Shown here piece by piece: positions 1 to 21,486 of a stretch of DNA of 64,000 nt. The DNA is from Acutalibacteraceae bacterium. Lineage in GTDB: Bacteria > Bacillota > Clostridia > Oscillospirales > Acutalibacteraceae. Made by a program: the position numbers and the translations under genes. Where the stretch lies: positions 671 through 64,670 of the forward strand of contig JAZQTM010000104.1 of NCBI GenBank assembly GCA_045630765.1, in the 5' to 3' direction. Under the pieces are notes generated by a model that did not search any database, was not told the origin of the DNA, and saw only the letters and a list, made by a program, of their open reading frames with translations. Within the stretch, counting starts at the first letter, position 1. Each line of letters opens with the position of its first letter.

Positions 1-1
1 C

Positions 2-1414
2 TATTGCAGTCTTAGTGCTACCTTGAGTGAGATGCGCGATATGCCGCTCGATATTGATCAGATCTATTTGACGAAACCGGGCGACAGCTTACCGGAAAAG
101 ACAGGCTTCTTCAAGAGCATGGGCTTCTCGATCCATCGCTTGGCAGCCTCCTTCTATTTGGATTATAACAACATTTCCGGTTCCGCTGATGGTCAACAGT
201 CCGTTGACATTTGGGTTAACTGGGGTCAAGACCAAGCACAGGTTTTGAACACTCTTAACCAAACCTTCACCGAAAAGACGGGCATTGCGGTCAACTTGAA
301 GATCGTTAACGCCTCGATCGTCCAGGCTGTTTTGTCAGGTAAAGGTCCTAACGTCATCTTGCAGCACAGCCGAAGCGAACCTGTCAACCTCGCTATGCGT
401 GGTGTGTTGAGAGAGTTAAGTTCTTTCCCGGATTACAAAGAGGTATTGGAACGGTTTATGCCGGGTGCAGAAGATCCTTACTATTATAAAGGTGAGTTGT
501 ACGCACTGCCGGATACGCAGAACTTCTATATTATGTTCATCCGTACCGATATTTTCGAACAATTCGGTTTGGAATATCCGACGACTTGGGAAGAGTTCGA
601 AGAAGTCACCAAGATCTTGGCACGTAACAACTTGGACGCTTCTATCCCGTATGCGCAGATCACGACGACTACTGCGACCAACGCAGGTGTCGGCAGCTTG
701 AGCTTGTTCCCGAGCCTTGTCATGCAGCGCGGATTGTCCTTGTATGCTGAGGATGGCAAGAGCACGACGTTATCCACTCCGGAGATCATTCAGACCTTCA
801 CCGATTGGACAGACTTCTACACGAAACTGAAAATACCGGTTACCGTTGACTTCTACAACCGTTTCCGTACCGGTACTTGCCCGATGGGCGTTGCCGTGTA
901 TTCCACGTACAACACCTTGAAAGCAACAGCACCGGAAATCGAAGGCTTGTGGACAATGGTTCCGATCCCCGGAACGGTGCAGGAAGATGGTTCGGTCAAC
1001 CACGCATCTACCGGTGGTGGCACCTCTTGCTCGATCTTGAAATCGACGCCTGAAAAAGAAGAGGCGGCTTGGGAATACCTGAAGTGGTGGACGGATGTCG
1101 AAACCCAGACCACCTACTCAATGACGGTTGAATCCATCTTAGGCCCGACCGGTCGTATTTCCATTTCCAACAAAGAAGCAATGCTCAACGGCCTTTCCTG
1201 GGAAGACGACGCTGCTGAAAAATTAGAAGAAGCGTGGAGCCAGGTAAAAGAGGTTCCGGAGGTTCCCGGTAGTTACTATATTTCGCGTTCTATTGATCAC
1301 TGCTTCTGGAATGTTATCAACGCCGGCAAGATTCCGAAGGATATGCTTAACAAATGGGGTCTTGAGGTTGATAGCGAAATTGAGCGTAAATGGAACCAGT
1401 ATGAAAACAGGTAA
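2..1414 (+). CDS. ABC transporter extracellular solute-binding protein (carbohydrate type), 5' end cut by window edge
   Basis: The reading frame is open from nt 2, with no stop before the listed ATG at 23. The SBP-like core starts near DIWVNWGQDQAQVLNTLNQTFTEKTGIAVNLKIV, so an N-terminal extension lies off-window. Two MalF/MalG-type permease genes follow directly. Confidence 0.75.
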   Translation, partial: YCSLSATLSEMRDMPLDIDQIYLTKPGDSLPEKTGFFKSMGFSIHRLAASFYLDYNNISGSADGQQSVDIWVNWGQDQAQVLNTLNQTFTEKTGIAVNLKIVNASIVQAVLSGKGPNVILQHSRSEPVNLAMRGVLRELSSFPDYKEVLERFMPGAEDPYYYKGELYALPDTQNFYIMFIRTDIFEQFGLEYPTTWEEFEEVTKILARNNLDASIPYAQITTTTATNAGVGSLSLFPSLVMQRGLSLYAEDGKSTTLSTPEIIQTFTDWTDFYTKLKIPVTVDFYNRFRTGTCPMGVAVYSTYNTLKATAPEIEGLWTMVPIPGTVQEDGSVNHASTGGGTSCSILKSTPEKEEAAWEYLKWWTDVETQTTYSMTVESILGPTGRISISNKEAMLNGLSWEDDAAEKLEEAWSQVKEVPEVPGSYYISRSIDHCFWNVINAGKIPKDMLNKWGLEVDSEIERKWNQYENR

Positions 1415-1514
1415 GCAAACCTGAAAGTATTGTAGTAATTGTTAGGTATCCGACAAACGGCAGTTGCCGTTTGTCGGGCACTCGCAGATTTATGTAACAA
1501 GAGGAGGAAACAGG

Positions 1515-2438
1515 GTGAAAACAAAAGCAATACCCACCTCAAAATCGAAACTGTCCGGAGCAGGAGAAAACACAGCTTCCTGGTTGTTAGTGGCACCGTT
1601 TATGACGTTCTTTATTTTATGTACGCTCATTCCGGTTGCCTCCTCGATCGTGCTTAGCTTCTTCGATTACGATATGGTTTCAACCCCGATTTTCACGGGC
1701 ATTCAAAACTATATGCGTATGTTCACCGACGACAGTGTGTTTTTCACGGTTTTGGGCAACACCTTAAAATTTGCAGTCGTAACCGGCCCGTTAAGCTTTT
1801 TACTTTCGTTTTTGCTTGCCTGGTTGATTAACGAATTTCCGCACGCCGTCCGTAGCATCTTGTCCTTTTTGTTCTATGCGCCCGCCTTGGTTGGTAACGC
1901 ATATTACATTTGGCAGGTTGCCTTCTCGGGCGATAGTTTCGGTTATGTGAACAACTTATTGATCAGCTTAGGTTTCATCACCGAGCCGATTCAATGGTTG
2001 AAGAGCGTCGCCTACAACGCTACGATTATTATGATCGTACAGTTGTGGATGAGTATGGGTGTTTCGTTCTTGGCAAACATTTCCGGTTTGCAGAACGTCA
2101 ACACCGAATTGTATGAAGCGGGCGCCATCGATGGTGTTCGTTCGCGTTGGCATGAGTTGTGGTATATCACACTCCCGTCCATGAAGAGCATTTTGTTGTT
2201 CAGTGCGGTTATGCAGATCCAGTCCGTCTTCTCCATCAGTGTTGTTGTAACGACCTTGGCGGGTTACCCCAGTGTTAACAACTCCGTTGATACGTTGGTC
2301 CCGTTAATTCAGGACGTCGGTACGGCACGATATGAAATGGGTTATGCGGCAGCGCTGTCCGTGTTCTTGTTCCTCATGATGGCCGTATTCAGAACCTTGG
2401 TAGGTAAGGCCTTGGATTTGATGGGTAAACAAGACTAA
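1515..2438 (+). CDS. Carbohydrate ABC transporter permease (MalF-like)
   Basis: Multiple hydrophobic spans and an EAA loop (YEAGAIDGVRSRWHELWYITLPSM). GTG at 1515 is in frame with the track ORF (1464) and is preceded by GAGGAGGAAAC, so I prefer it as the start. Confidence 0.8.
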   Translation: MKTKAIPTSKSKLSGAGENTASWLLVAPFMTFFILCTLIPVASSIVLSFFDYDMVSTPIFTGIQNYMRMFTDDSVFFTVLGNTLKFAVVTGPLSFLLSFLLAWLINEFPHAVRSILSFLFYAPALVGNAYYIWQVAFSGDSFGYVNNLLISLGFITEPIQWLKSVAYNATIIMIVQLWMSMGVSFLANISGLQNVNTELYEAGAIDGVRSRWHELWYITLPSMKSILLFSAVMQIQSVFSISVVVTTLAGYPSVNNSVDTLVPLIQDVGTARYEMGYAAALSVFLFLMMAVFRTLVGKALDLMGKQD

Positions 2439-2490
2439 CAGAACGTTAAAGTAAACGAATCTATGATATTATTTAGGCGGTGAGTGTGAT

Positions 2491-3390
2491 TTGACTAATA
2501 ACACGGTAAAGGCAATCCGTATGCTGCGCCCCAAGAAACGCTCGGAATACCGACGGTATACGCGCTCGAAGGCAGGTACGGTACTGTATTTTTCCCTTTT
2601 GTTCTTAGCGGGTATGTTCACGGTTTTACCGATGATATACTGTATATGCACCTCTTTTAAGCCGTTGGACGAGTTGTTGATTTTCCCGCCCCGCTTTTTG
2701 GTGCATCGTCCGACGCTGGAGAACTATATAGCCCTTCCTTCGCTGTTGAACACCCTGCGTGTTCCGATGGAACGCTATTTCTTCAACAGCTTGTTTGTTT
2801 CCGTAACCGGTGTGTTCCTGCACGTTATGGCGGCATCTGCTGCGGCCTTTGTTTTCTCGAAATCGCAGATCAAAGGCAGAAAGGTTCTCTTCTTGATCGT
2901 GCAGTTCGCCCTTTTGTACAACAGCTACACGTTGTCGGTTCCCCAATACTTGATCTTCAGTAAGATCGGTATTGTCGATACCTATTTGGTGTATCTGTTC
3001 CCGGCGATCCCCTCCGCGATGGGTTGTTTCTTGATGAAACAGTTTATCGATGTCAGTGTGCCGAACGCTTTGATGGAAGCGGCGCGTATTGACGGTGCGG
3101 GTATGGGACGTATTTACTGGCAGATCATTATGCCGATCGCAAAGCCCTCGTGGATGACCTTGATGTTGTTCTCATTCCAAAACCTGTGGTCAACCGTGCC
3201 GAGCGGAACCATCTTCAGCGAGGAATTGAAACTTATTCCTCAGGTTATGACCAACATAACCAACGGTGGTATTGCTCGATCGGGCAGTGCAATGGCTGCG
3301 ACGGTTTTGATGATGTTACCTCCGATTACTGTGTATTTCATTGCTCAAAGTAACGTTATCGAAACAATGAGTAGTTCCGGTATTAAGTAA
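2491..3390 (+). CDS. Carbohydrate ABC transporter permease (MalG-like)
   Basis: EAA loop MEAARIDGAGMGRIYWQIIMPIAKP and six hydrophobic segments. The start is uncertain: TTG at 2491 or ATG at 2521. Confidence 0.8.
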   Translation: MTNNTVKAIRMLRPKKRSEYRRYTRSKAGTVLYFSLLFLAGMFTVLPMIYCICTSFKPLDELLIFPPRFLVHRPTLENYIALPSLLNTLRVPMERYFFNSLFVSVTGVFLHVMAASAAAFVFSKSQIKGRKVLFLIVQFALLYNSYTLSVPQYLIFSKIGIVDTYLVYLFPAIPSAMGCFLMKQFIDVSVPNALMEAARIDGAGMGRIYWQIIMPIAKPSWMTLMLFSFQNLWSTVPSGTIFSEELKLIPQVMTNITNGGIARSGSAMAATVLMMLPPITVYFIAQSNVIETMSSSGIK

Positions 3391-3426
3391 GAAGCAGAGT
3401 GACAAGCGAAAGTTAGGTGGATTGTC

Positions 3427-5541
3427 TTGAAAAAAATAATTTCAGCTCTTTGCGTTGCCATACTGCTGTTTGCCAGCTCGGGCATTGCGGCTTCGGCGGA
3501 CTCCTTCACTCGTAAAGACGAGCCGAACGGTTCTTCAACGCAGGCACTTTCCCGCGAATTGTACGCAGCAACGCGCACCATTTCAGCAGCGGATTTAGGC
3601 CTTGAAGATACCCTTGAAGAGATGACCGATCTGTTTTGCGCGGCAAACGGCGAAGTCTACATTCTGTTGAGCAAATCATCCAAGATTGTTGTCTTGAACC
3701 CTGATTACACCTTGAAAGAAGTCTTGACGGCACACGATGCAGACGAGATGGAAATCGATTTCTCGGGCGCACAGGGTGTTTATGTAGATGCCAATGGCGA
3801 CTTGTACATTTCGGATACATTAAATGCGAGAATTCTGGTTACCGATTCTACCGGTTTGTTCAAAGAATCGTGGGATCTGCCGGATTCACCGTTGATTCCG
3901 GACGATTTCCAATATCAGCCCACACGTTTCCTCAAGGATAAAGACGGCTATGCATACGTTATCAGCTTGGGTTGCTATTACGGTGCGTTGGCCTATTCTC
4001 CCGAAGGCGAATTCATGGGCTTTTTCGGCGCGAACCGCGTAACCGCGACCGCGTTGAACACGATTTCTTACTTGTATGATATGATTACAAGTAACGATAC
4101 CAAGAAAGAGGCATCTGCCAAGGTTCTCCCGTATTCGTTTTTGGATATGGCATTGGATTCCGACGGCTACTTGACGGTTTGTTCCGGTAAAACTGCTGTA
4201 TGGTCCAATGGTAACGGTCAGATCCGTAAGATCAGCTCCGGTGGTTCCAACATTTTGCTGAAACGTCAGAGTGACGGTTCGACCACAGCGGCAGACTCGA
4301 TCAACTTCTTGGAAGGTTACGTAGCCAGCAAAGCGGGTAAAAACCGCGTGCAGGACTTGGCTGCGCTGGATGTGAGCGCAGACGACTATATCTTTGCGTT
4401 AGATAAAATTTACGGTTTGGTCTATATCTACGATAACACCTGTAACCGTATCAGCACGTTCGGCGGCGGTATCGGTGCGGGAACCGAGCTTGGTGAGTTT
4501 GTCTCGCCCTCTGCAATGGCACTGCATGGTACGTCGTTACTGGTTGCTGATGCAAAGACTGAGCAGGTCACGGTATTTGAGCAGACCGAGTTTGGTTCTC
4601 TTTACTTCAAAGCACAGACCTTGACCTTGAAAGGTGACTACATCGAATCCCAACCGTTATGGGAACAGGTCATTGAGCAGGATGCCAGCTGTCAGTTAGC
4701 GTATCGCGGTTTGGCAAACGCGGCGTATAGCTCCAAAGATTATCGCGCAGCGTTGGAATATGCTGAAAAGGGCTTGGATTACCCGACGTACGATTTGGCA
4801 TGGCAGATTTTGATCAAGGAGTTTGTCGCTCGCTATTTCATTTGGTTCTTTGTGGGTGCGATTCTTCTGCTTGTTGGTCTTGGCGTCCTCCTTGTGCGTT
4901 TGAATAAACGTGAGCAACCGTTAATTCAAAATGAAAAAGTAAAGGCACTCTTTGGTGTATCCACACATCCGTTCCGTGCCTTTGAAGACATTAAATATAA
5001 GAAGCGCGGTTCTCTGCTGATCGCTGCGATCATCGTTGTTCTGTTCTTCTTTGCCAAAGCTTTGGAGGCAACTTCGACCGGTTTCTTGTTCTGCCGTAAC
5101 AGCTCGCAGACCTATAACATCGTCTTTACCCTGGCACAGACGGTTGGTTTGGTTGTTTTGTGGAGCGTCGTTAACTGGTTGATGTGCACCTTGTTCTCCG
5201 GCAAAGGCTCTCTCAAGGAGATTGTGGTCGTAACAGCGTATTCACTGTTACCGCTTGTCATCTACACGTTTATCTTTGTAGCATTTTCCCACATTCTCCC
5301 GCTTTCAGGCGGAGCGCTTATGGGCGGCATCCAAACGGTATTGTTGATCTATACGTTCTACCTGTTGTCCGTCGGTATGATGGCAGTTCATGAATACACC
5401 TTCCCGAAATTCCTGCTTACCAGCTTGGTGACTTTGGTTTGTATGGTTTTGGCGATTTGCATCGGCTTTATCGTGGTCATCCTGCTTCAGCAGTTCTGGA
5501 ATTTCTTGTACTCCATCTTCATGGAGATAGTGTTTAGATAA
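3427..5541 (+). CDS. Secreted NHL-repeat beta-propeller-like protein with TPR-like segment and C-terminal Yip1-like multi-pass membrane domain
   Basis: TTG start follows AGGTGG. Signal peptide MKKIISALCVAILLFASSGIAASA. NHL-like blades include GVYVDANGDLYISDTLNARILVTD, GLVYIYDNTCNRISTFG and LHGTSLLVADAKTEQVTVFE. A TPR-like stretch (AYRGLANAAYSSKDYRAALEYAEKGL) precedes 5-6 hydrophobic spans that begin after FGVSTHPFRAFEDIKYKKRGS. Confidence 0.6.
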   Translation: MKKIISALCVAILLFASSGIAASADSFTRKDEPNGSSTQALSRELYAATRTISAADLGLEDTLEEMTDLFCAANGEVYILLSKSSKIVVLNPDYTLKEVLTAHDADEMEIDFSGAQGVYVDANGDLYISDTLNARILVTDSTGLFKESWDLPDSPLIPDDFQYQPTRFLKDKDGYAYVISLGCYYGALAYSPEGEFMGFFGANRVTATALNTISYLYDMITSNDTKKEASAKVLPYSFLDMALDSDGYLTVCSGKTAVWSNGNGQIRKISSGGSNILLKRQSDGSTTAADSINFLEGYVASKAGKNRVQDLAALDVSADDYIFALDKIYGLVYIYDNTCNRISTFGGGIGAGTELGEFVSPSAMALHGTSLLVADAKTEQVTVFEQTEFGSLYFKAQTLTLKGDYIESQPLWEQVIEQDASCQLAYRGLANAAYSSKDYRAALEYAEKGLDYPTYDLAWQILIKEFVARYFIWFFVGAILLLVGLGVLLVRLNKREQPLIQNEKVKALFGVSTHPFRAFEDIKYKKRGSLLIAAIIVVLFFFAKALEATSTGFLFCRNSSQTYNIVFTLAQTVGLVVLWSVVNWLMCTLFSGKGSLKEIVVVTAYSLLPLVIYTFIFVAFSHILPLSGGALMGGIQTVLLIYTFYLLSVGMMAVHEYTFPKFLLTSLVTLVCMVLAICIGFIVVILLQQFWNFLYSIFMEIVFR

Positions 5542-5589
5542 TGGTATCTGAGTGTGGTAATTGATTTTCCTGTATGAAGGATGTGCAGT

Positions 5590-7815
5590 ATGAAAAAGTG
5601 TGTATTATTTGCGATGTGCTGTATCCTGCTTCTTTCGATGGTAGGATGTAGCTCATCCAAAGCAGAAACCTATCCCGTTTATGATGAGAATGCGACGGTT
5701 TCTAACGTTGCAAGCGGCGTGGTAGCATCCAATGCCAACTACGAACTCATCTGGGATGAAACCGCATATTGCGTGATGCTTCGTGATATACAGACCGGTT
5801 ATATCTGGTCGAACATTCCGTACGAGTATCTGCAAGAAGGCGGTTTGAATTCAAACGTAAACTCAACCATCAGTATCACGACCGTTAAACAGTCGAACTT
5901 GACTTGGGATACCTATCGTGGTTACACCGATGCCGTCGAAGGCGGCAAGGTGTCTTGCGAGCAGGTTGAGAACGGCGTTCGTGTTACCTACTATTTCGAA
6001 AGCGCGCAAATTTCCGTTCCGGTTATTTACACGCTGGGCGCTACCTCACTGGATGTGACGGTTGATGCACAGAACATCAGCGAAGGGGAGGAGCATAAGA
6101 TCCTTTCCGTTTCGGTTGCACCGTTCCTGTGCTCCGCGCTTAATGAAAACGAAGGTTCTTACGTTATGGTTCCTTCCGGTTCCGGCTCTCTGATCTATGC
6201 TGCTGAAACCGTAAAGGGTACGCGTAAATACAGTGGGCAAGTATACGGCCGTGATCTTTCGCAGGCGTTTGTTGAGCTCGTTGTTGAAGAAGAAGCGCTT
6301 CGTTTGCCGGTGTTCGGTGTCAAGAACGGCGACAACGCTATGTTGTGCGTGATGAAGGACGGCGCAGAATCGGCAACCGTTGAAGTGGAAGCGGGTAACA
6401 AACGTACCGGTTACACAACGGTATACCCGACCTACTATATTCGTGGCTATGACCAATTGGCAACGAATTCCAGCAACAAGTCCATCCTTGGTGGCGGTGA
6501 CTACTATTCTGTTACCTCCATCGTGCGCACGACCGTTAATCCGACGTTGTCCTATTTCCCGTTAAAGGGTGAGGACGCCGACTATAACGGTATGGCAAAA
6601 TGCTATCGTAAGTATTTGGAAAGCACGGGCGAACTGGTAAAAACATCTTCCGACGCCAATTACGGCTTGACCATTCTTGGCGGCGCACAGGTTACGGGTT
6701 CCGTTTTGGGCTTCCCGTGCAGTGACACGGTCGCCGCGACAACGTTCGAGGAAGCACAAACCATCATAAGCTCCTTGTCGGAGGGCTCTGCCAGCCAACC
6801 GGCTGTTCGTTTGGTTGGTTTTGGCGACTGTGGCGTCAATCCCGGTAGTTTAGCCGGCGGTTTCTCGCTCAATTCCGCGTTTGGTACAGACGCCCAACGT
6901 GCTGCTCTGGAAAAATATTGCGCGGACAACGGCATCTCCTTGTTCTCCGACTTTGATTTGCTCCGTTTCAGCAAATCCGGAAATGGTTTCTCCACGTCAT
7001 CAGACGTTGCGAAGAGTTCCAGCTTGCGCAAAGCGATTTGCTATCCGTTGGGTACACCGCAACGTGAGAAGAAATTGAAATACGCCTACAATTTGTTGAG
7101 CCGTAGCCAACTGATTCCGGCGTCTCAAAAATTACTCAAGGCGGCTGACAAGTCAAATCTTTCCGGCGTTAGCTTTATGTCCCTCGGACATATCGCGTAT
7201 TCCGATTATGATGATGCTCTCTACGCTTTAAGAGGCAACACCCAAACCGATGTATCTTCCATCATCAGTGCCTTTATCAAAGGCGGTCATGCTGTGGCGG
7301 GTGGCCCGAATGCGTATTCCGCAGTTTCGTCTTCCATGGTCTTTGATGTTCCGACCGATAACGGCGGCAACTTCAATTTTGATGCTGAGATTCCGTTCTA
7401 TGAGCTGGTGTTCAGCGGAACCAAACCGATCTTCGGTGAATCCATCAATATGGCTGACGATATGAACCGCGCTACTCTGAAAACGTTGGCATACGGTGCG
7501 AACTTGAGCTTCTCCGTTCTGTACGAATACGATACGGACTTCACGGAAACCGATATGCTTTACGTGGGAATGGGTGCCAACAAATTGTATGCTTGCGGTT
7601 TTTCGGCAAACGAAAAGTTGATCAACAGCACCATGGAAAAATACGGTGCCCTGTACGAGAAGACCGGCAAAGCAAGCATGGTTCGTTACACTGCACTGTC
7701 GGATTCGGTTACCGAAACCGTATTTGATAATGGCGTAACGCTGTATATCAACCATAGTGACGCACCTGCTGAATCGCCTGTCGGCGAACTGGCAGCCTAC
7801 GAAGTGCGGTATTAA
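5590..7815 (+). CDS. Large lipoprotein of unknown function (possibly DUF5696-like; candidate extracytoplasmic glycan-active protein)
   Basis: ATG at 5590 is preferred (MKKCVLFAMCCILLLSMVGCSS, lipobox-like VGC). The 741 aa soluble body has no motif I can assign. The DUF5696 name rests only on my memory of such genes next to YIP1-family genes in Firmicutes sugar loci. Confidence 0.45.
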   Translation: MKKCVLFAMCCILLLSMVGCSSSKAETYPVYDENATVSNVASGVVASNANYELIWDETAYCVMLRDIQTGYIWSNIPYEYLQEGGLNSNVNSTISITTVKQSNLTWDTYRGYTDAVEGGKVSCEQVENGVRVTYYFESAQISVPVIYTLGATSLDVTVDAQNISEGEEHKILSVSVAPFLCSALNENEGSYVMVPSGSGSLIYAAETVKGTRKYSGQVYGRDLSQAFVELVVEEEALRLPVFGVKNGDNAMLCVMKDGAESATVEVEAGNKRTGYTTVYPTYYIRGYDQLATNSSNKSILGGGDYYSVTSIVRTTVNPTLSYFPLKGEDADYNGMAKCYRKYLESTGELVKTSSDANYGLTILGGAQVTGSVLGFPCSDTVAATTFEEAQTIISSLSEGSASQPAVRLVGFGDCGVNPGSLAGGFSLNSAFGTDAQRAALEKYCADNGISLFSDFDLLRFSKSGNGFSTSSDVAKSSSLRKAICYPLGTPQREKKLKYAYNLLSRSQLIPASQKLLKAADKSNLSGVSFMSLGHIAYSDYDDALYALRGNTQTDVSSIISAFIKGGHAVAGGPNAYSAVSSSMVFDVPTDNGGNFNFDAEIPFYELVFSGTKPIFGESINMADDMNRATLKTLAYGANLSFSVLYEYDTDFTETDMLYVGMGANKLYACGFSANEKLINSTMEKYGALYEKTGKASMVRYTALSDSVTETVFDNGVTLYINHSDAPAESPVGELAAYEVRY

Positions 7816-7835
7816 TGGGGAGGAGGGAACATACT

Positions 7836-8753
7836 ATGAAACCTTTTTGGAAATCTCAAAGTGGCTTGGTTGCTCGTCGTGAACGTATGGGTTATACCTT
7901 CGTTGCTCACTGGGCAATAGGCTTGATCTTGTTCTTTATTGTTCCGCTCGTCTCTTCGTTCATTTATGCATTTTCCGATGCACGAATCACTGAGAACGGT
8001 ATGGAAACAGCCTTCGTCGGTTTCACGCATTTCGACTACATTATTAACTCGGACGCGAAATACATTGACAACTTGACGGCTTCGTTGGGCTTGATCGGTT
8101 ACACACTTCCGCTGGTTTTGTCATTGAGCTTGATCTTGGCGGTTGTACTTAATCAGCAGTTTGCAGGTCGTACCGTTTTCCGTGCGATCTTTGCGTTGCC
8201 GATCATTATCGCTACTTCGCCGATTATCGACCTTTTGTCCGGTAGTTTGGTCAACGCTCCCATCTTTAACCTGACCAGTAATACCAGTGGTCAAGACCAA
8301 TATGGTGGCGTTATCGATTTCGCGAGTATTTTACAAAGTTTGGAATTGCCCGATCAGATCAATACTATGCTTGGCAACTTGTTGAGTAACGTCTTTAGTA
8401 TTATCTGGAGTTGCGGCGTGCAAACGATCCTGTTCTTGGCAGGCTTGCAGAGCATTCCCGCACAGCTGTACGAAGTGTCCAAGATCGAGGGCGCGAACAA
8501 GTGGGAAGAGTTCTGGATGGTAACCGTCCCGAGCTTGCGCCACGTTATCACGCTGGTTTTGATCTACACGATGATCCAGCTGTTTACCGCAACGGACAAC
8601 CCGGTTATGACGCAGGCGTTTGAATTGTTGCAGCAAAAACAGATCTACGATCAGAGCTCTGCTATGTTGTGGCTGTATTTCGGCATTGTTTTGGCGGTTA
8701 TGGGTGTGGTTCTCGGTTTGTACAATCGTTTCTGCATCCGCAAATGGGAATAA
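7836..8753 (+). CDS. Third carbohydrate ABC transporter permease (MalF-like)
   Basis: EAA-type loop YEVSKIEGANKWEEFWMVTVPSLRH and six hydrophobic spans. ATG at 7836 follows GGAGGAGGG; the track ORF starts at 7815. Confidence 0.75.
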   Translation: MKPFWKSQSGLVARRERMGYTFVAHWAIGLILFFIVPLVSSFIYAFSDARITENGMETAFVGFTHFDYIINSDAKYIDNLTASLGLIGYTLPLVLSLSLILAVVLNQQFAGRTVFRAIFALPIIIATSPIIDLLSGSLVNAPIFNLTSNTSGQDQYGGVIDFASILQSLELPDQINTMLGNLLSNVFSIIWSCGVQTILFLAGLQSIPAQLYEVSKIEGANKWEEFWMVTVPSLRHVITLVLIYTMIQLFTATDNPVMTQAFELLQQKQIYDQSSAMLWLYFGIVLAVMGVVLGLYNRFCIRKWE

Positions 8754-8773
8754 ACCACATTACGTATTATCAC

Positions 8774-8811
8774 AAAAAGCCGATGTGCCTTTTAGGCGCA
8801 TCGGCTTTTTT
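8774..8811 (+). terminator. Rho-independent terminator
   Basis: AAAAAGCCGATGTGCC TTTT AGGCGCATCGGCTTTTTT follows the third permease gene. Confidence 0.8.
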
Positions 8812-8930
8812 CTGTAAACAACCTTTTAAAAAATCGGTATTGCATTATGAAGGTTTTGATGTTACAATAAGATAGTACTTATTTCTCCGTGAATACTTAA
8901 AAATTATGATAGAACAGAGAGGGATACGTA

Positions 8931-9407
8931 ATGACAAAGATCAGCAAGCTCTTAGCATTGTGTTTCGTATTGATGGCATTGATTCTGTGTATGGCACTCG
9001 CCGGTTGTAAAAAGACTCCTGTGTCTGACACGAATGACGATGCACAGGTAACAACCACGGTACAAGCAGGTGGTTCGACAACCGAAATTCAAGTCGGCGA
9101 AGAGGGCTTTATGCCGGATGATGACGACGTTGTGGTTGGAATCGAAGGCACCAAATCCTCAAGCTCCGTTGCCACTTCCAAATCTTCCGGCACGATGACA
9201 TCCACCACAAAATCTTCTGCCGCAGGGGGGACGACGAAGTCTTCTTCAAAGGCTACCACCACCACGAAGGGTCAACAAAGCGGAAATGTTTCGCAAAGCC
9301 AATCGACTGCAGAAGCTACCACAACAACGACCAAAGGCGCCACAATTACTACAACAACCAAAGGTGCTACAAAGTCCACTAATAAAAATGAAACGCCGAT
9401 TTATTAA
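8931..9407 (+). CDS. Small Thr/Ser-rich lipoprotein
   Basis: Lipobox LAGC at residues 23-26. The rest is low-complexity T/S/K sequence containing the tandem motif TTTTKGATI/TTTTKGATK. Confidence 0.6.
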   Translation: MTKISKLLALCFVLMALILCMALAGCKKTPVSDTNDDAQVTTTVQAGGSTTEIQVGEEGFMPDDDDVVVGIEGTKSSSSVATSKSSGTMTSTTKSSAAGGTTKSSSKATTTTKGQQSGNVSQSQSTAEATTTTTKGATITTTTKGATKSTNKNETPIY

Positions 9408-9419
9408 GTAACGCTATAC

Positions 9420-9461
9420 AAAAAGCCACCGTCCGTTATGTTGAGGACGGTGGCTTTTTTT
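9420..9461. terminator. Bidirectional hairpin terminator
   Basis: AAAAAGCCACCGTCC-GTTATGTTGA-GGACGGTGGCTTTTTTT. The AraC stop codon sits in the loop. Confidence 0.75.
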
Positions 9462-10386
9462 GGCTCTTTTTAGCGGGGGAACGTTTAGGCTTTGAGGGGA
9501 CAGATTCGGCAGACGCAGCAAGTGAAGAGGCAAACAAGCCTAGTGAAACGTCACCGTTTTGCTGCAATTCGCGCTCAAAAGAGGGGGCGTGCCCGTATTG
9601 CTTGGTGTAAACACGAGAAAAGTATTCCAACGAGGAGAAACCGCACATTTCCGAAATCTTGGAAATGGGATGCTCACTTTTCAGCAAAAGAGCAAGTGCG
9701 TTGGAGCAACGATAACGGTTGATGTACTCAACGATGGAAATTCCGGTTTCCTTTTTAAAGAATTTCGACAAATACCAACGGGAAATACCCACCTGATTAC
9801 CAATCGTTTCAAGCGTGAGCGGTTGTGAGTAATGCTCGTGAATATACGACGTAATGGATTGCAAAAGGGGAGGAGTACCGTCTTCTTCCGAGGAGGTTTT
9901 CGTATGCTTTCGCAGCAACTGCAACAGAATCAATTGTATTAAATTTTGAATATACAAGTTGTTCCACGCCAGCGCCTGTTTCTTTTCTCGTATCACCGAA
10001 CGGAAGAGTTCGATGATCTTCGCATCTTTTATCAACCCCTCAAACGTGTAGGTCCACACCTTATTCCCCGCAGGTAACAAGGCTTCGTTGAAGGTTAACA
10101 TCCAAGCCACCAACGGCTCATTGGTAACGCCTTGCATGAAGCGGTGCGTTTGGAGAGGATTAACAACAACCAATTCACCGGCAACAGCGGTAAAAAATGA
10201 TCCTTCCACAAAACACCCCAGCGTTCCTTGTTCTACCAAAATCAATTCCAGGTGATCGTGTCGATTGAAAGCGGAAGCATTTTCATTTTCAAAATTTTCG
10301 CAGCGAAGCGAAAATAACTCACCCTTTTTCAGGTGAGTCCCCAATGGAATATTATGCGTGTCGTTGGTAGAAGTGTTCATAAGCAA
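9436..10386 (-). CDS. AraC family transcriptional regulator (cupin-like sensor + HTH)
   Basis: The C-terminal half carries a typical AraC double HTH (LTLETIGNQVGISRWYLSKFFKKETGISIVEYINRYRCSNALALL ... CGFSSLEYFSRVYTKQYGHAPS). It is divergent from the GH130 genes. Confidence 0.85.
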   Translation of the reverse strand: MLMNTSTNDTHNIPLGTHLKKGELFSLRCENFENENASAFNRHDHLELILVEQGTLGCFVEGSFFTAVAGELVVVNPLQTHRFMQGVTNEPLVAWMLTFNEALLPAGNKVWTYTFEGLIKDAKIIELFRSVIREKKQALAWNNLYIQNLIQLILLQLLRKHTKTSSEEDGTPPLLQSITSYIHEHYSQPLTLETIGNQVGISRWYLSKFFKKETGISIVEYINRYRCSNALALLLKSEHPISKISEMCGFSSLEYFSRVYTKQYGHAPSFERELQQNGDVSLGLFASSLAASAESVPSKPKRSPAKKSQKKPPSST

Positions 10387-10601
10387 CTCCTAAAATTAGC
10401 CAATATAATACAGGGGCGTAACAACATTAACACTTGCGTGCCGAAAGATAAAATGTTATAGTAAAACTGTATATAATTCACAGTATTCTGCGACTTTCTG
10501 CCGTAAAGTATAGCATAATATCGACAAGATAGTCAAGAGGGTTTTTGTGAATAATACCGCACTACGTATTGTGGCAGATTTGATATTAAGGAGAATGGCA
10601 A

Positions 10602-11543
10602 ATGGGAAAAGAAAAAGTATTCAATGAGTTCATTCTGCACCGTAGCGAGCACAACCCGTTGCTATCACCGTCAGATTTTCCGGGCGGTTTTGCCGACTCG
10701 GTTATGAACTGCGGTCAGGTTATCCACGATGGCAAGATTACCTTGTTGGTAGCGGTTGTTTATCGCGGCAGATACAATGGCGCGGAAGCCGGTATTCATG
10801 TGGCGACCAGTGAGGATGGTATTCATTTTGAAATCAATCCTGAACCGCTCTGCAAACCTGTAGATTGGGCTCCCGGCTGGAAGGAAATGGACCGTTGGGT
10901 TATCGATCCGCGCGTAACAAAGATCGACGATACCTATTATATTGTTCGTCCCGGCCAGTGTCCCGCCGGTCCGGTTGCCTTGTTGGAGAAAACCAAGGAT
11001 TTCAAATCGGTAGAATATATTGATTGCATTTCGTTACCTTCCAACCGTGTTCCTTGCTTGTTCCCCGAGAAGGTGAACGGCAGATATGCTCGGCTTGACA
11101 GACCGAATGCGGGCGGTATTTGGATTTCCTATTCACCCGATTTGGTTCATTGGGGCAGTTTCAAACCGCTGTTGATGCCGTGGGGTGCCTTTTTTGGATT
11201 GAAGGTTGGCCCGACACCTCCGATCAAGACCAAAGACGGTTGGTTGGAAATTTTTCACGGCGTGTGGCGCAACTGCGCGAACGAGCGCTATTCATTGAGC
11301 GCGATGTTGCTTGACCTGGATGATCCCTCCAAGATCATCGGCAACATGGAGAGCTGGATTTTGACCCCGCAAGCAGATTGCGAGCGTCTTGGAAACGTGA
11401 ACAATGTTGTGTTTGCGTGCGGTGCTTTGGCGGATGAAGAGAAAGATGAAATCCGTGTATACTACGGCGCCGCGGACGAGCACGTTTGCTTGGCAACCGG
11501 TTCGCTTAGCGAACTCATTGATGCTTGTAAAAAAGGAATCTAA
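10602..11543 (+). CDS. GH130 family glycoside phosphorylase, copy A (beta-mannoside phosphorylase-like)
   Basis: DPR catalytic-Asp context (WVIDPRVTKIDDTYYI). Basic phosphate-site-like residues are present (NRVPCLFPEKVNGRYARLDRP, IFHGVW), and the tail is YYGAADEHVCLA. RBS AAGGAG. Confidence 0.75.
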   Translation: MGKEKVFNEFILHRSEHNPLLSPSDFPGGFADSVMNCGQVIHDGKITLLVAVVYRGRYNGAEAGIHVATSEDGIHFEINPEPLCKPVDWAPGWKEMDRWVIDPRVTKIDDTYYIVRPGQCPAGPVALLEKTKDFKSVEYIDCISLPSNRVPCLFPEKVNGRYARLDRPNAGGIWISYSPDLVHWGSFKPLLMPWGAFFGLKVGPTPPIKTKDGWLEIFHGVWRNCANERYSLSAMLLDLDDPSKIIGNMESWILTPQADCERLGNVNNVVFACGALADEEKDEIRVYYGAADEHVCLATGSLSELIDACKKGI

Positions 11544-11577
11544 TAATCATTTTCTTAAAGCAAAAGGAGAAAGTCAA

Positions 11578-12543
11578 ATGGCAAAAGAAAAGGTATTAAA
11601 CGAGTTCATCTTACATCGTAGTGAGCATAACCCGCTGATTTCACCCACGGATTTTCCGGGTGGTATTGCTGACTCGGTTATGAACTGCGGTCAGGTTATC
11701 CATGACGGCAAGGTCACGTTATTGGTAGCGGTTATTTACCGTGGTCGATTAAACGGTGCGGAAGCCGGTATCCACGTAGCAACCAGTGAAGACGGTATTC
11801 ATTTTGAGATCAATCCGGAACCGCTGTGCAAACCCGTAGACTGGGCTCCCGGCTGGAAGGAAATGGATCGCTGGGTTATCGATCCGCGCGTAACGAAGAT
11901 CGATGACACCTATTACATTATGCGTCCCGGTCAATGCCGTCCGACCCTCGCTCCTGTTGCGTTGCTTGAAAAAACGAAAGATTTCAAATCTGTCGAATAT
12001 ATGGGTTGCGTTGCTTTGCCGGAAAACCGCGTGCCGTGTTTGTTCCCTGAAAAGGTCAACGGTCGCTATGTGCGTCTTGACAGACCGTACGCAACCAAGA
12101 ACACTCCTCAAGGCGGCATTTGGATTTCCTATTCGCCCGACCTCATTCACTGGGGCGATCACAAGCCGTTGTTGATGCCGTGGGGTGCATACTTTGGTTT
12201 GAAAGTTGGTCCGACGCCTCCGATCAAGACGAAGCATGGTTGGCTTGAAATTTTCCACGGCGTATGGCGTAACTGTGCCAACGATCGCTATTCGCTCAGC
12301 GCGATGCTGCTGGATTTAGAGGACCCCTCCAAGATCATCGGCAAGATGGAAAGCTGGATCCTGACCCCGCAGGCGGATTATGAGCGACTCGGCAACGTGA
12401 ACAACGTCGTATTTGCTTGTGGCGCGTTGGCGGATGAAGAGAAAGACGAAATCCGTGTTTATTATGGCGCGGCTGACGAGCACGTTTGCTTGGCAACCGG
12501 TTCGCTCAGCGAACTCATCGACGCCTGTAAGAAAGGGCTGTAA
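11578..12543 (+). CDS. GH130 family glycoside phosphorylase, copy B
   Basis: A paralog of copy A. ATG at 11578 follows AAAGGAGAAAG. The track ORF start at 11404 overlaps copy A in another frame and is rejected. Copy B carries a YATKNTPQGG loop insertion relative to copy A. Confidence 0.75.
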   Translation: MAKEKVLNEFILHRSEHNPLISPTDFPGGIADSVMNCGQVIHDGKVTLLVAVIYRGRLNGAEAGIHVATSEDGIHFEINPEPLCKPVDWAPGWKEMDRWVIDPRVTKIDDTYYIMRPGQCRPTLAPVALLEKTKDFKSVEYMGCVALPENRVPCLFPEKVNGRYVRLDRPYATKNTPQGGIWISYSPDLIHWGDHKPLLMPWGAYFGLKVGPTPPIKTKHGWLEIFHGVWRNCANDRYSLSAMLLDLEDPSKIIGKMESWILTPQADYERLGNVNNVVFACGALADEEKDEIRVYYGAADEHVCLATGSLSELIDACKKGL

Positions 12544-12606
12544 TCCCATTTAATCTGTCTCTAAATTGCGGAGAAAACCGAAATTTAAAATAAAGGAGAA
12601 TATCAA

Positions 12607-13566
12607 ATGGCAAAAGAGAAAGTATTAAACGAGTTCATCTTACATCGTAGCGAGCATAACCCGTTGATCTCGCCGACGGATTTCCCGGGCGGTATCGCTG
12701 ACTCGGTTATGAACTGCGGTCAGGTTATGCACGAGGGAAAGGTCGTATTATTGGTAGCTGTTGTCTATCGTGGCAGATACAATGGCGCTGAAGCCGGCAT
12801 CCACGTGGCAACCAGTGAGGATGGTATTCATTTTGATATCAATCCCGAACCGCTGTGCAAACCCGTAGACTGGGCTCCCGGCTGGAAGGAAATGGACCGT
12901 TGGGTTATCGATCCGCGTCTGACCAAGATCGACGATACCTACTACATTATGCGTCCCGGTCAGTGCCCCGGCGGTCCGGTAGCGCTGCTTGAAAAAACCA
13001 AGGATTTCAAAACCCTTGAGTACATGAGCTGTGTATCGTTGCCCGCCAACCGTGTGCCGTGTCTGTTCCCCGAAAAGATCAACGGTATGTACGTGCGGTT
13101 CGATAGACCGTATGCCGTCAAAAACACCCCGCAGGGTGGTATTTGGTTATCGTATTCTCCTGACCTCATTCACTGGGGTAATCACAAACCGGTGTTGATG
13201 CCGTGGGGAGCATACTTTGGCTTGAAGGTTGGTCCGACGCCTCCGATCAAGACGAAGCATGGATGGCTTGAAATTTTCCACGGCGTATGGCGCAACTGTG
13301 CGAACGATCGCTATTCGCTCAGCGCTATGCTGTTGGATTTGGAGGATCCCTCCAAGATTATCGGTAAGATGGAGAGCTGGATTTTGACTCCGCAGGCGGA
13401 TTACGAGCGTCTTGGCAACGTGAACAACGTTGTGTTTGCTTGCGGCGCAATAGCAGACGAAGAGAAAGACGAGATCCGTGTGTACTACGGTGCTGCTGAC
13501 GAGCACGTTTGCTTGGCAACCGGTTCTCTCAGCGAGCTGATTGATGCTTGTAAGAAAGGTCTGTAA
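12607..13566 (+). CDS. GH130 family glycoside phosphorylase, copy C
   Basis: A paralog of copies A and B with the same DPR, NR and IFHGVW motifs and the loop YAVKNTPQGG. RBS AAAGGAG. Confidence 0.75.
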   Translation: MAKEKVLNEFILHRSEHNPLISPTDFPGGIADSVMNCGQVMHEGKVVLLVAVVYRGRYNGAEAGIHVATSEDGIHFDINPEPLCKPVDWAPGWKEMDRWVIDPRLTKIDDTYYIMRPGQCPGGPVALLEKTKDFKTLEYMSCVSLPANRVPCLFPEKINGMYVRFDRPYAVKNTPQGGIWLSYSPDLIHWGNHKPVLMPWGAYFGLKVGPTPPIKTKHGWLEIFHGVWRNCANDRYSLSAMLLDLEDPSKIIGKMESWILTPQADYERLGNVNNVVFACGAIADEEKDEIRVYYGAADEHVCLATGSLSELIDACKKGL

Positions 13567-13624
13567 TAGCGCTATTCTTAATTAAAGTGCCTGCTATATC
13601 AGGTCAAAAGAAAGGTGATAGAAT

Positions 13625-15016
13625 ATGAAATTAGCCTTATTGGTAGCAAACCGTGGCTTCTTCCCGAGCTCGGTTATTGAATCCGCATACAGCGAAATGC
13701 TGGCAGCGTTTAAAAAAGTCGGTGTAGAAGCACTCTGCATCGATGACGGCGTTACGAAATATAACGCTGTCGAAACTACGCAGGAAGGTATGGCGTATGC
13801 CAAATTCTTGGAAGCCCACCGCGGCGAATACGACGGTTTGGTTATTTGCCTGCCGAACTTCGGTGATGAAAACGGCATCAAGGCCGCTATCGCCGACGTC
13901 AACGTGCCGATTCTGATTCAAGCCTATCCGGATGAGATCGGCAAGATGGACTTTGCTCATCGCCGTGACGCATTCTGCGGTAAGCTGGCACTGGGCAGCG
14001 TACTGGCACAGATGGGTAAGAAATACACGGCATATGCACCTTTCGTCGTGCATCCCGCCAGCGAGGAGTTCCACAAGCAGTTGTCGACCTTTGCGGCAAC
14101 TTGCCGTGTGGTTGCCGGTATGAAGAAAATGCGCGTCGGTTGCATCGGTGCAAGAACGACCGCGTTCAAGAGTGTCCGCTTTGACGAGTTTGCTCTCGAA
14201 AACGTGGGTATCGATGTCGAAACCTACGATCTTTCCACCTTCGTTCAGGCTATGCAGAAACTGGACGATAACGACAGCGCTGTGCTGGAGTGGAAGAAAA
14301 AGTTAGCGGATGTCGTTTGCTTTGCCAACGCTCCGGAAGGCCGCGAGTTGTCAGTCGCGAAACTCGGCGTAGTGGTTTCCCGCTTGATCGAAGAGAATCA
14401 GTTGGATGCGATCGCAATCCGTTGCTGGAGCGAATTGCAAACCACGTTCGGCATTTCGCCCTGCTCCATTATGGGTATCCTCAACCAGAACGGTATTGCT
14501 GCTGTTTGCGAGACTGACGTTGCCAACGCCATCGCGATGAAAGGCTTGTCCTTGGCGGCAGGCAAAGGCGCAGGCTGCTTGGATCTGAACAACAACTACG
14601 GCGACGAGTTGGATAAATGCATCCTGTTCCACTGCGGTCCGCTTCCGATGGATTTGATGCAGGGTCCCGGCGAGGCGCAAAGTCACAAAATGTTGGATAA
14701 ATCCTTTGGTCCGGATTGCAGCTGGGGTCTCAACGTCGGCAAAATGAAGACCGGCGCGGTTACCTATTCCGGTATGCGTACCGAGAACGGCAAACTGCAG
14801 TTCTTCGTTGACGAAGGCTGCATCACCGATGATCCGGTAGAAAAGGAATTCTTCGGTGTTCCGGGCGTTCTGCAAACTGAAAACCTGCAGAACAAGCTGT
14901 ACACCATCGGTATGGCTGGATTCCATCATCACGCAGCGATCGTTTCCGGTAATGTCGCGGATGCGGTAACGGAAGCTTTCACCAAGTACTTGGGCTATCA
15001 GCTGATCGATTGCTAA
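13625..15016 (+). CDS. L-fucose/L-arabinose isomerase family-like protein
   Basis: The 463 aa length and N-terminal MKLALLVANRGFFP pattern recall the sugar aldose-ketose isomerase family. So do the internal CETDVANAI, FHCGP and GFHHHAAIVSG segments. The assignment is from memory only. Confidence 0.5.
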   Translation: MKLALLVANRGFFPSSVIESAYSEMLAAFKKVGVEALCIDDGVTKYNAVETTQEGMAYAKFLEAHRGEYDGLVICLPNFGDENGIKAAIADVNVPILIQAYPDEIGKMDFAHRRDAFCGKLALGSVLAQMGKKYTAYAPFVVHPASEEFHKQLSTFAATCRVVAGMKKMRVGCIGARTTAFKSVRFDEFALENVGIDVETYDLSTFVQAMQKLDDNDSAVLEWKKKLADVVCFANAPEGRELSVAKLGVVVSRLIEENQLDAIAIRCWSELQTTFGISPCSIMGILNQNGIAAVCETDVANAIAMKGLSLAAGKGAGCLDLNNNYGDELDKCILFHCGPLPMDLMQGPGEAQSHKMLDKSFGPDCSWGLNVGKMKTGAVTYSGMRTENGKLQFFVDEGCITDDPVEKEFFGVPGVLQTENLQNKLYTIGMAGFHHHAAIVSGNVADAVTEAFTKYLGYQLIDC

Positions 15017-20605: not shown

Positions 20606-20619
20606 AGGGGATTATAACT

Positions 20620-21482: not shown

Positions 21483-21486
21483 ACCC

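Follow-up and report, generated by a model that had tools for sequence, protein, structure and literature searches.

ATP-binding cassette (ABC) importers that depend on a solute-binding protein (SBP) are usually described as an SBP, two permeases and ATPases, without further subunits, and in Gram-positive bacteria the SBP is normally lipid-anchored. The Sus-like utilisomes of Bacteroidota and the polysaccharide utilization loci (PULs) of Gram-positive bacteria combine a transport core with binding or hydrolysing surface proteins, variable carbohydrate-active enzymes (CAZymes) and a local regulator. Here we analysed a stretch of 64,000 nucleotides (nt) from an Acutalibacteraceae bacterium (Bacillota; Clostridia; GenBank assembly GCA_045630765.1, contig JAZQTM010000104.1, positions 671 to 64,670), hereafter the window, and within it the gene at 3427..5541, which encodes a 704 amino acid (aa) protein with an extracellular NHL beta-propeller, a TPR-like helical unit and a Yip1 membrane domain (NHL-TPR-Yip1; the family is called NHL-Yip1). 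We report that this protein is a conserved, transcribed and obligatory member of a dual ABC-importer cassette, which adds two core proteins (NHL-Yip1 and a DUF5696 protein) in fixed order to SBP-dependent importers across Bacilli and Clostridia. All positions refer to the window, and features lie on the forward strand unless stated otherwise.

Two published systems come closest. The first is the xylan degradation locus of Caldicellulosiruptor bescii, which is printed as xloEFG-X-GH129-axoFGE-..., where X is an 'NHL repeat-containing protein' (PMC8579813). Athe_0177 (X) and Athe_0178 (labelled GH129) were differentially expressed on xylan and Avicel, and Athe_0177 was induced together with the operon, its expression equalling or exceeding that of the permeases (PMC8579813). 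X is left without a function and the cassette is not treated as a unit in that study (PMC8579813), and X is not discussed in the XynR/XylR paper (PMC12285236). The C. bescii locus resembles the present cassette in its series of SBP, two permeases, NHL protein, GH129-like protein, two permeases and SBP, both importers being of the CUT1 type, and it differs in its cargo, xylanases there versus glycoside hydrolase (GH) family GH130 here. For the homology of Athe_0177 and for its Yip1 domain we rely on annotation and synteny only: a profile search toward distant clades returned mostly Paenibacillaceae and no Caldicellulosiruptor among the 120 matches listed, and the XynR operator oligonucleotide (PMC12285236) gave 0 matches in a genome search, both as the 44-mer and as its 20-mer core. 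In the literature searched, Athe_0177 and Csac_2416 were not found in main texts, nor was the term 'DUF5696' or 'NHL repeat' together with ABC transporter and polysaccharide utilization, and the phrase 'YIP1 family protein' was not found among the matches listed. The NHL-Yip1 family is catalogued and its gene order is in print, and neither NHL-Yip1 nor DUF5696 has a function, a complex or a name.

The second system is YknW, a Yip1-family accessory protein that modulates the assembly of the YknXYZ ABC exporter (PMC4887032). Like NHL-TPR-Yip1, it is a polytopic Yip1-family protein encoded inside a Bacillota ABC-transporter operon, and it is a required accessory (PMC4887032). The relatedness of the two proteins is known only as a shared Pfam family. 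YknW has, to our knowledge, no large ectodomain. An earlier note on the present DNA, made from the sequence alone, had held that bacterial Yip1 proteins have essentially no assigned function and that NHL-TPR-Yip1 could be an undescribed surface subunit, for substrate capture or scaffolding, which hands glycans to the SBP. YknW qualifies the first statement, and 'undescribed' is nearly right, the gene order being printed for C. bescii with the NHL gene appearing only as 'X' or 'NHL repeat-containing protein' (PMC8579813).

We assigned the domains of NHL-TPR-Yip1 using Pfam, a family profile built from 20 homologues (A1) and an AlphaFold2 model (mean predicted local distance difference test score, pLDDT, 79; predicted template-modelling score, pTM, 0.65). 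The open reading frame (ORF) starts with TTG, with an AGGTGG ribosome-binding site 7 nt 5' of it, and its N-terminus (aa 1-24, 3427..3498) reads as a type-I signal peptide with MKK, a hydrophobic core and a cleavage site AASA/DS, in which A24 is invariant across the 20 homologues; no lipobox was seen at this N-terminus. The extracellular propeller follows (aa 27-386, 3505..4584) and is modelled with a pLDDT of about 85-94 over most blades. Pfam NHL matches one repeat at aa 112-138, a region that includes GVYVDANGDLYISDTLNARILVTD, with 21.5 bits (cut-off 20), and orthologues reach 50-61 bits. Among solved structures, the family profile matches the NHL domains of four proteins, Thin and TRIM2 at E 5e-14 to 5e-13 and the whole set, with TRIM71 and Brat added, at E 5e-14 to 3e-8; the NHL domain of PknD is also among the matches. 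Moreover, Foldseek aligned the propeller model with the TRIM71 NHL domain at E 1e-13 and a TM-score of 0.76, and with the NHL propellers of TRIM71, TRIM2, Thin and Brat at 0.72-0.78 (target-normalised). We read the propeller as six-bladed, from the roughly 27 strands modelled in aa 27-386 and from the six-bladed targets rather than from a count by a tool. It carries a helical insert (aa 203-235, 4033..4131; pLDDT 43-47), which is present and conserved in all three clades compared and is a candidate partner interface in the model.

With the NHL domains of TRIM71, TRIM2, Brat, Thin and PknD the propeller shares the fold, one Asp per blade and the character of an interaction or sensor module. Those of TRIM71, TRIM2, Brat and Thin are cytoplasmic and bind RNA or protein, and that of PknD is fused to a kinase, whereas the propeller studied here is secreted, has the conserved helical insert and is fused to the TPR and Yip1 parts. 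When 36 sequences of three clades were compared, the residues found invariant in the propeller were the NHL aspartates of the blades (D68, D130, D336 and D375) together with glycines and prolines, and no conserved set of catalytic-looking residues or metal-site-like cluster was seen. These residues bear on the possibility that the protein is a membrane-anchored extracellular enzyme, i.e. that the propeller is a lactonase, lyase or esterase acting on a decoration or linkage before import. Such a role would agree with the Pfam SGL matches (SMP-30/gluconolactonase region; 36.9 and 37.6 bits, cut-off 26.3) of some relatives, with sub-cut-off matches to Vgb-lyase and Phytase-like models, and with the many database names that follow SGL-type matches ('SMP-30/gluconolactonase/LRE family', 'streptogramin lyase'). 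The SGL matches, however, span one or two blades (about 80 of 246 model positions), as generic blade similarity would, and the window protein itself has no SGL match; the invariant acidic residues are structural and the top structural matches are NHL domains that are not enzymes. We consider an enzymatic propeller quite improbable.

Just outside the membrane lies the TPR-like unit (aa 388-449, 4588..4773), modelled as four helices. The family profile matches consensus TPR proteins over positions 401-454 at E 2e-23 to 1e-15, and the Pfam TPR models all stay below their cut-offs over aa 393-463 (best TPR_16, 20.6 versus 32.7 bits), and we describe the unit as TPR-like, with about two repeats. 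It is followed by a long helix that contains transmembrane span 1 (TM1; aa 452-494, 4780..4908) and, after this out-to-in span, by a basic loop (aa 491-529) with two short helices in the model. The Yip1 domain (4951..5538) comprises a cytoplasmic HPF motif (aa 514-516) and five transmembrane helices within aa 530-703 (530-550, 565-589, 596-621, 626-655 and 659-703), so that TM1 and the Yip1 helices give six spans in total. Pfam Yip1 (PF04893) matches aa 509-677 with 61.5 bits (cut-off 28.6) over profile positions 1-171 of 173; it also matches, with 50.4 bits, the stand-alone protein of Butyrivibrio and, with 37.7 bits, the fusion of Paenibacillus. Judging from the signal peptide and from the positive-inside rule, the N-terminal segment of the Yip1 domain would lie in the cytoplasm and the C-terminus outside. 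No solved structure related to the Yip1 part was found in a profile search of the PDB, even at E<=10.

Across the clades P515, F553, N583, G592, G594, Y605, P609 and E700 of the membrane part are invariant, H514 and S529 nearly so, and H655 is present in 85-97% of the sequences. The signature motifs of eukaryotic Yip1 proteins are DLYGP and GY. Neither occurs literally in aa 496-704; the residues that correspond to them may be P515, within HPF, and Y605, within AYS..P. In Lachnospiraceae the NHL, TPR and TM1 parts form one ORF and Yip1 a second one in a different frame, with an overlap of about 22-25 nt. This split is found in all 11 complete Lachnospiraceae loci, i.e. L081 (11827-13922) and 10 of the 11 relatives retrieved (L097-L107), and it is a conserved gene fission, not a sequencing error. 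The earlier note's outline of the protein, with a cleavable signal peptide, an NHL-like propeller, a pair of TPR-like helices and a C-terminal membrane domain of five to six spans with a Yip1-like start, is borne out by these data; its 'at least four' blades give way to our reading of six.

In the window the gene is embedded in an operon that begins with the C-terminal half, i.e. the SBP fold, of a giant SBP (23..1414; Pfam SBP_bac_8/SBP_bac_1), whose gene is cut by the window start. It continues with a MalF/UgpA-like permease 1 (P1, 1464..2438) and a MalG-like permease 2 (P2, 2491..3390), both Pfam BPD_transp_1 and conserved in position, P1 in all loci. After NHL-TPR-Yip1 follow a DUF5696 lipoprotein with a GH129/GH101-like glycosidase fold (5590..7815) and a UgpA-like permease 3 (P3, 7815..8753; Pfam, NCBIfam); the partner permease 4 (P4) of P3 is not in the window. 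The start of DUF5696 is most likely the ATG at 5590, with GAAGGA 8 nt upstream. NHL-TPR-Yip1 is separated from P2 by 36 nt and from DUF5696 by 48 nt, and a terminator scan found no convincing terminator in either gap. Its placement between the second permease and a large lipoprotein, as given in the earlier note, is right, and the spacings of 37 and 49 nt stated there are each 1 nt off.

A scan of one genome per species gave 370 loci, and the best 80, almost all from Acutalibacteraceae and Oscillospiraceae of gut and rumen, were translated in six frames and searched with the window proteins. Since the window starts inside the giant SBP gene, relatives at 83-88% identity (L001, L002, L005 and L045) stand in for the region upstream. 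In the 80 Oscillospirales loci the order giant SBP (about 920-970 aa), P1, P2, NHL-TPR-Yip1, DUF5696, P3 holds without exception wherever the contig reaches. Including the further searches below it is invariant in about 108 loci from Acutalibacteraceae, Lachnospiraceae, Paenibacillaceae and Ruminiclostridium, often continued by P4 and a second SBP, and it persists among sequences down to about 26% identity. With a Paenibacillus DUF5696 as the only query, 14 of 14 Paenibacillaceae loci had NHL-Yip1 directly upstream in the same order; because DUF5696 alone was the query, this test of co-occurrence is independent of the NHL-TPR-Yip1 sequence. A Butyrivibrio NHL query returned 11 Lachnospiraceae loci (58-76% identity), with the order held in 10 of them, the ones long enough. 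Thus the three components whose joint occurrence the earlier note proposed to check, NHL-Yip1, the lipoprotein of about 740 aa and the extra permease, do travel together, P2, NHL-Yip1, DUF5696 and P3 keep a fixed order in all loci long enough, and neither a lack of NHL or Yip1 similarity nor a random placement with respect to transporter genes, either of which the note had taken as grounds to discard its proposal, was found.

Cultured bacteria have the same arrangement. When searched with tblastn against plasmid records, NHL-Yip1 and DUF5696 each matched the same two records and no others, plasmid pNP243 of Butyrivibrio fibrisolvens D1 and a replicon of Paenibacillus cellulosilyticus. According to RefSeq the latter encodes a UgpC-type ATPase, an SBP of 986 aa, two permeases, a 'YIP1 family protein' of 719 aa, DUF5696 and two permeases, and the former GH43, an SBP of 977 aa, two permeases, an 'NHL repeat-containing protein' of 498 aa and, downstream of it, a 'YIP1 family protein' of 206 aa, DUF5696, two permeases and two SBPs. 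Three more cultured genomes with Pfam-annotated genes carry the cassette, namely Ruminiclostridium hungatei, where two MalK-type ATPases precede it, Paenibacillus hemerocallicola, and Marinicrinis lubricantis, where GH106 and GH88 flank it. In 5 of 5 annotated cultured genomes the stop of NHL-Yip1, or of Yip1, overlaps the start of DUF5696 by 4 nt, an arrangement typical of stoichiometric partners.

The second importer varies more in its position. In the clade at 33-38% identity P4 comes after P3, and a second SBP (about 490 aa) is often present as well; the clade at 44-49% identity has P4 and the second SBP upstream of the giant SBP. In L002 (83% identical) a second SBP, one or more beta-helix proteins and the giant SBP succeed one another upstream, and in L008 P4 lies further up. 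The cassette order is thus circularly permuted between clades, with P4 and the lipid-anchored second SBP placed after P3 or before the giant SBP. Some Bacilli cassettes have four permeases and only one SBP and one ATPase gene, and 12 assemblies hold two to three different cassette copies among the best 80 loci. All loci are from Bacillota except one at 49% identity (L015, JAQUCE010000124.1), which is filed under a Kiritimatiellae metagenome-assembled genome (MAG) and is probably a mis-binned contig.

The operon is expressed. Two gut metatranscriptome runs (X4 and X10) contain near-identical contigs (95-99%) over the operon and the GH130 genes downstream of it (window 1-14000), and the source organism and the locus are active in the sampled gut community. 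The depth of the RNA contigs is roughly even over 1-9340 and about zero over the convergent araC gene (9341-10741), which argues against DNA carry-over and for RNA, and fits one transcript from the SBP to a small Ser/Thr-rich lipoprotein that closes the operon. A terminator-like site lies at 9433-9450, in a scan that was weak overall (18 sites versus 13.4 expected). NHL-Yip1 is accordingly a member of a CUT1-importer operon, with BPD_transp_1 permeases and a family-1 SBP in the same operon and RNA contigs across all of its genes. That the gene is a hitchhiker or a mis-called ORF is ruled out by conservation, synteny and transcription.

The partner protein DUF5696 is a lipoprotein of 741 aa in the window (lipobox MVGC; Pfam DUF5696, 407 bits), and its AlphaFold2 model (pLDDT 88, pTM 0.89) adopts the fold of known glycosidases. 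The full-length Foldseek matches are led by Zobellia ZgGH129 (5opq, E 8.5e-29) and Bifidobacterium NagBb (5wzr, E 5e-25), followed by GH101, GH36 and GH31, and by sequence the profile aligns aa 312-403 only, with 5opq and 8rzk as its matches (E 5.7e-6). It has in common with GH129 and GH101 (ZgGH129 is a 3,6-anhydro-D-galactosidase, NagBb an alpha-N-acetylgalactosaminidase) an N-terminal beta-sandwich, a (beta/alpha)8 barrel and a C-terminal beta domain, but the sequence identity is only 13-14% and Pfam keeps the family as a DUF. The barrel aspartate D542 is invariant in all clades from Paenibacillus to the window, and the pair D457/D459 is not conserved in Paenibacillus. Judging from the model, DUF5696 looks like a distant, hitherto unrecognised glycosidase family with a putative hydrolase activity. 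A lipobox is present in at least 61 of 74 Oscillospirales copies, and the Paenibacillus and Butyrivibrio proteins have an N-terminal hydrophobic anchor.

Full-length giant SBPs have 922-1004 aa (e.g. L001:857-3661, L082:7035-9995, L081:7043-9976 and L108:5229-8150), with the SBP fold restricted to the C-terminal half. For the N-terminal half (about 540 aa) no family scored above threshold and no relative was found in the PDB by search; sub-threshold matches to Golvesin_C recur in four distant clades, besides single weak ones to the beta-sandwiches GH115_C and CBM35 (E 1e-5 to 0.13). A type-I signal peptide without a lipobox was found in 56 of 63 copies of the giant SBP, which is unusual for a Gram-positive SBP; of the second SBPs, at least 16 of 19 are lipoproteins. 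The giant SBP being unanchored, it needs something that holds it at the cell.

These proteins also bear on what the propeller may do. It could be a surface glycan-binding domain, which binds a polymer or long oligosaccharides and delivers these to either the SBP or DUF5696, in the manner of the surface glycan-binding proteins of Bacteroidota, with Yip1 as a mere anchor. Its extracellular position in loci with varying CAZymes (GH130 here; GH43, GH36, GH3, GH106/GH88 and beta-helix proteins elsewhere) agrees with this, as does the divergence between propeller paralogues, which is near that of the N-terminal half of the SBP (mean pairwise identity 0.44 and 0.39), as for a specificity determinant. 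For anchoring, on the other hand, one transmembrane helix would suffice, and five conserved helices with N583, E700 and H655 and a cytoplasmic HPF motif imply a role of their own; no carbohydrate-binding family matched the propeller in Pfam, NCBIfam or profile searches. Moreover, the best-conserved part of the propeller is the region around the insert and not an obviously variable face: aa 181-200, beside the insert, is the best-conserved 20-residue segment in 36 sequences (0.72), the insert segments themselves reach 0.62 and 0.58, and aa 196-240, which contains the insert, has 0.55 versus 0.44 for the whole propeller in 61 loci. Capture could be done by the giant SBP, whose N-terminal extension of about 540 aa, with its recurrent weak matches resembling carbohydrate-binding modules (CBMs), appears from its sequence the better candidate. 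On balance a glycan-binding propeller is unlikely in our view.

The reading that we favour, tentatively and at somewhat less than an even chance, is that NHL-TPR-Yip1 is a scaffold or tether that joins the glycosidase-like DUF5696 and the unanchored giant SBP to the two importers. The machine would consist of the CUT1-type channels P1P2 and P3P4, one or two MalK-type ATPases (encoded in the operon in some lineages), the giant secreted SBP, often a lipid-anchored second SBP, a DUF5696 protein with a lipid or transmembrane anchor, and NHL-TPR-Yip1. The five-helix Yip1 module would pack on the membrane domains of the transporters in the bilayer, as YknW in YknWXYZ, and the propeller and the TPR unit, kept just above the membrane by TM1, would bind DUF5696 and/or the giant SBP, such that glycan capture, trimming and uptake would be held at one site. 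In favour of this reading are the invariant gene linkage, the 4-nt overlap with DUF5696, the occurrence of the NHL and Yip1 modules as two chains in Lachnospiraceae, the joint diversification of the core genes, the missing lipid anchor of most giant SBPs and the expression data. NHL propellers and TPRs are interaction modules, and the shape of the protein therefore fits a scaffold; aa 196-240 are more conserved than the rest of the propeller and the insert is of low confidence in the model, as expected of a partner interface. Of the two options given in the earlier note, scaffolding matches the data better than substrate capture.

We used rate covariation as a hint to binding partners, in a set of 61 complete loci that includes paralogous copies within one genome; the pairs of loci are not independent. 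The mean pairwise identity is 0.62 for P1 and P2, 0.54 for the C-terminal half of the SBP, 0.48 for P3, 0.42 for whole NHL-Yip1 (propeller as above, Yip1 0.43) and 0.34 for DUF5696. The pairwise identity of NHL-Yip1 correlates at 0.90-0.96 with that of each core gene, and the cassette thus diversifies as a unit. With the shared trend removed, known partners retain 0.60 (P1 with P2) and 0.43-0.46 (C-terminal half of the SBP with P1 or P2).

Several observations weigh against a scaffold. The partial correlations of NHL-Yip1 are weak next to the P1-P2 control, with 0.26 for the propeller and DUF5696, 0.23 for the propeller and P3, 0.22 for Yip1 and the N-terminal half of the SBP, 0.21 for Yip1 and P3, and about 0 for Yip1 and P1 or P2. 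The rate at which the propeller evolves is close to that of the substrate-facing parts, and ligand binding would give the same result. The giant SBP of Paenibacillus may be anchored by an N-terminus that stays uncleaved, and tethering may hence not be needed everywhere. YknW serves a MacB-type exporter with a membrane-fusion protein and not an SBP-dependent importer, and the physical contacts and the tethering role of NHL-TPR-Yip1 are ones that we infer.

The near-zero values for Yip1 with P1 and P2 also speak against a sensor or gate, in which the propeller would sense a glycan or the loaded SBP and the Yip1 helices, with the HPF...KYK..GS loop, would signal to the ATPases or permeases and coordinate the importers. 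The presence of the NHL sensor domain of PknD, for which a sensing role has been proposed, among the profile matches points in this direction, together with the conserved cytoplasmic segment (invariant P515, near-invariant H514 and S529) and the location of the gene between two permease pairs, and the Bacilli cassettes with four permeases for one SBP and one ATPase may need coordination. No recognisable signalling output domain is present, however, and the regulators next to the cassette (AraC, two-component systems, and LacI in C. bescii) vary, which means that no fixed signalling partner is encoded, and we give this role very little probability.

The scaffold would allow a broader view, which we regard as possible though rather doubtful, in which the cassette is a stable surface machine of monoderm bacteria in the role of a utilisome, with the Yip1 core and its arm of propeller and TPR unit organising the two importers, the unanchored CBM-SBP fusion and the GH129-like lipoprotein as a single complex for the binding, trimming and import of complex glycans. 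Like the Sus-like utilisomes and the Gram-positive PULs, the cassette has a conserved core beside variable CAZymes and a regulator and is multiplied within genomes. Unlike Sus, it has no outer membrane or TonB-dependent transporter, its core consists of two ABC importers, and a Yip1-type membrane protein, if it is the organiser, is without a counterpart in the Sus systems. Should this be true, the Yip1 fold of bacteria would serve more generally as a platform on which ABC transporters are assembled, and if the complex is real it is considerably more interesting than an importer variant with two extra fixed subunits. A role for NHL-Yip1 in the cassette would moreover give the bacterial Yip1 fold its first import function and explain how an unanchored SBP stays at the Gram-positive surface. 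The cassette is multiplied in gut and rumen genomes beside differing CAZymes and sits inside the well-studied xylan locus of C. bescii, and NHL-Yip1 together with DUF5696 provides a marker set for glycan-utilisation loci in Bacillota. Paenibacillus and C. bescii can be cultured, and genetic tools exist for the latter.

The family is large. More than 250 full-length homologues (about 700 aa, 44-88% identity) were found in the protein collection, almost all from Clostridia MAGs and either called 'YIP1 family protein' or without a name, and among 8,000 candidates scored the NHL-Yip1 profile matched at least 2,672 clusters at 90% identity (E<=1e-10), with many from Paenibacillus and Cohnella. The Yip1 part alone matched 894 of 1.84 billion representatives of 50%-identity clusters (E<=1e-10); in the best 150 of these 894, most are either about 700 aa with a C-terminal Yip1 or stand-alone proteins of about 200-235 aa, the rest being fragment-like or longer fusions. 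The names given to homologues are contradictory, i.e. 'YIP1 family', 'nuclease PIN', 'SMP-30/gluconolactonase/LRE family', 'serine/threonine-protein kinase PknD', 'streptogramin lyase' and 'DUF1282'. No PIN or kinase domain was present in the family members scanned, and the names 'nuclease PIN' and 'PknD' (P0437, P0443, P0472 and P0522) look like propagated misannotations.

The neighbours of the core differ between loci and include AraC regulators, GH3, GH36, an MGH1-like GH, xylose-isomerase-like TIM-barrel proteins, phosphoglucomutase and very large surface proteins with CBM4_9, GDSL or CarboxypepD_reg domains. A right-handed beta-helix family (73 ORFs) directly adjoins the core in 37 of the 78 loci from Oscillospirales, where two copies are frequent, and was not seen in the Paenibacillus or Butyrivibrio versions of the cassette; its members have about 500-720 aa and match Pfam Beta_helix weakly (L002:1005-4021, L041:111-2273, L046:3532-5277 and 34 other loci). 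In P. cellulosilyticus (L082:18288-25905) three LLM flavin oxidoreductases, two further SBPs and an NADPH oxidoreductase come after the cassette, and in R. hungatei (L108:1-2856, 18257-21813) genes for HGD-D dehydratases and BcrAD/BadFG activators flank it. These redox neighbours, which are not CAZymes, may mean that the substrate class is not always a plain glycan, or they may belong to unrelated operons.

In the window itself the last operon gene in this clade encodes the small lipoprotein mentioned above (8931..9407; lipobox LAGC), which is almost wholly Ser/Thr/Lys/Gly low-complexity sequence and is kept only in the closest relatives (L001, L002, L004, L005 and L045). It is followed by a convergent AraC-family regulator on the reverse strand (9436..10386), whose helix-turn-helix is readable in the translation and whose homologues flank 16 related loci. 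Further on lie three tandem GH130 beta-mannoside phosphorylase paralogues (10602-11543, about 11578-12543 and 12607-13566; Pfam Glyco_hydro_130 for the first), which are very similar by eye in their translations and represent the variable CAZyme cargo of this cassette copy; the start listed for the middle ORF (11404) is too early, and it is MAKEKVLNEF, at about 11578, that agrees with the neighbouring copies. The window also carries a fucose-isomerase-like gene and, beyond it, a PGM/PMM gene. Finally, a 945-aa protein within 17768-22665 combines a 5TMR-LYT membrane sensor, a SpoIIE/PP2C phosphatase and an anti-sigma-kinase-like HATPase_c_2 domain, and is followed after about 850 nt by a STAS and APH-kinase fusion protein; together the two look like an unusual fused partner-switching module.

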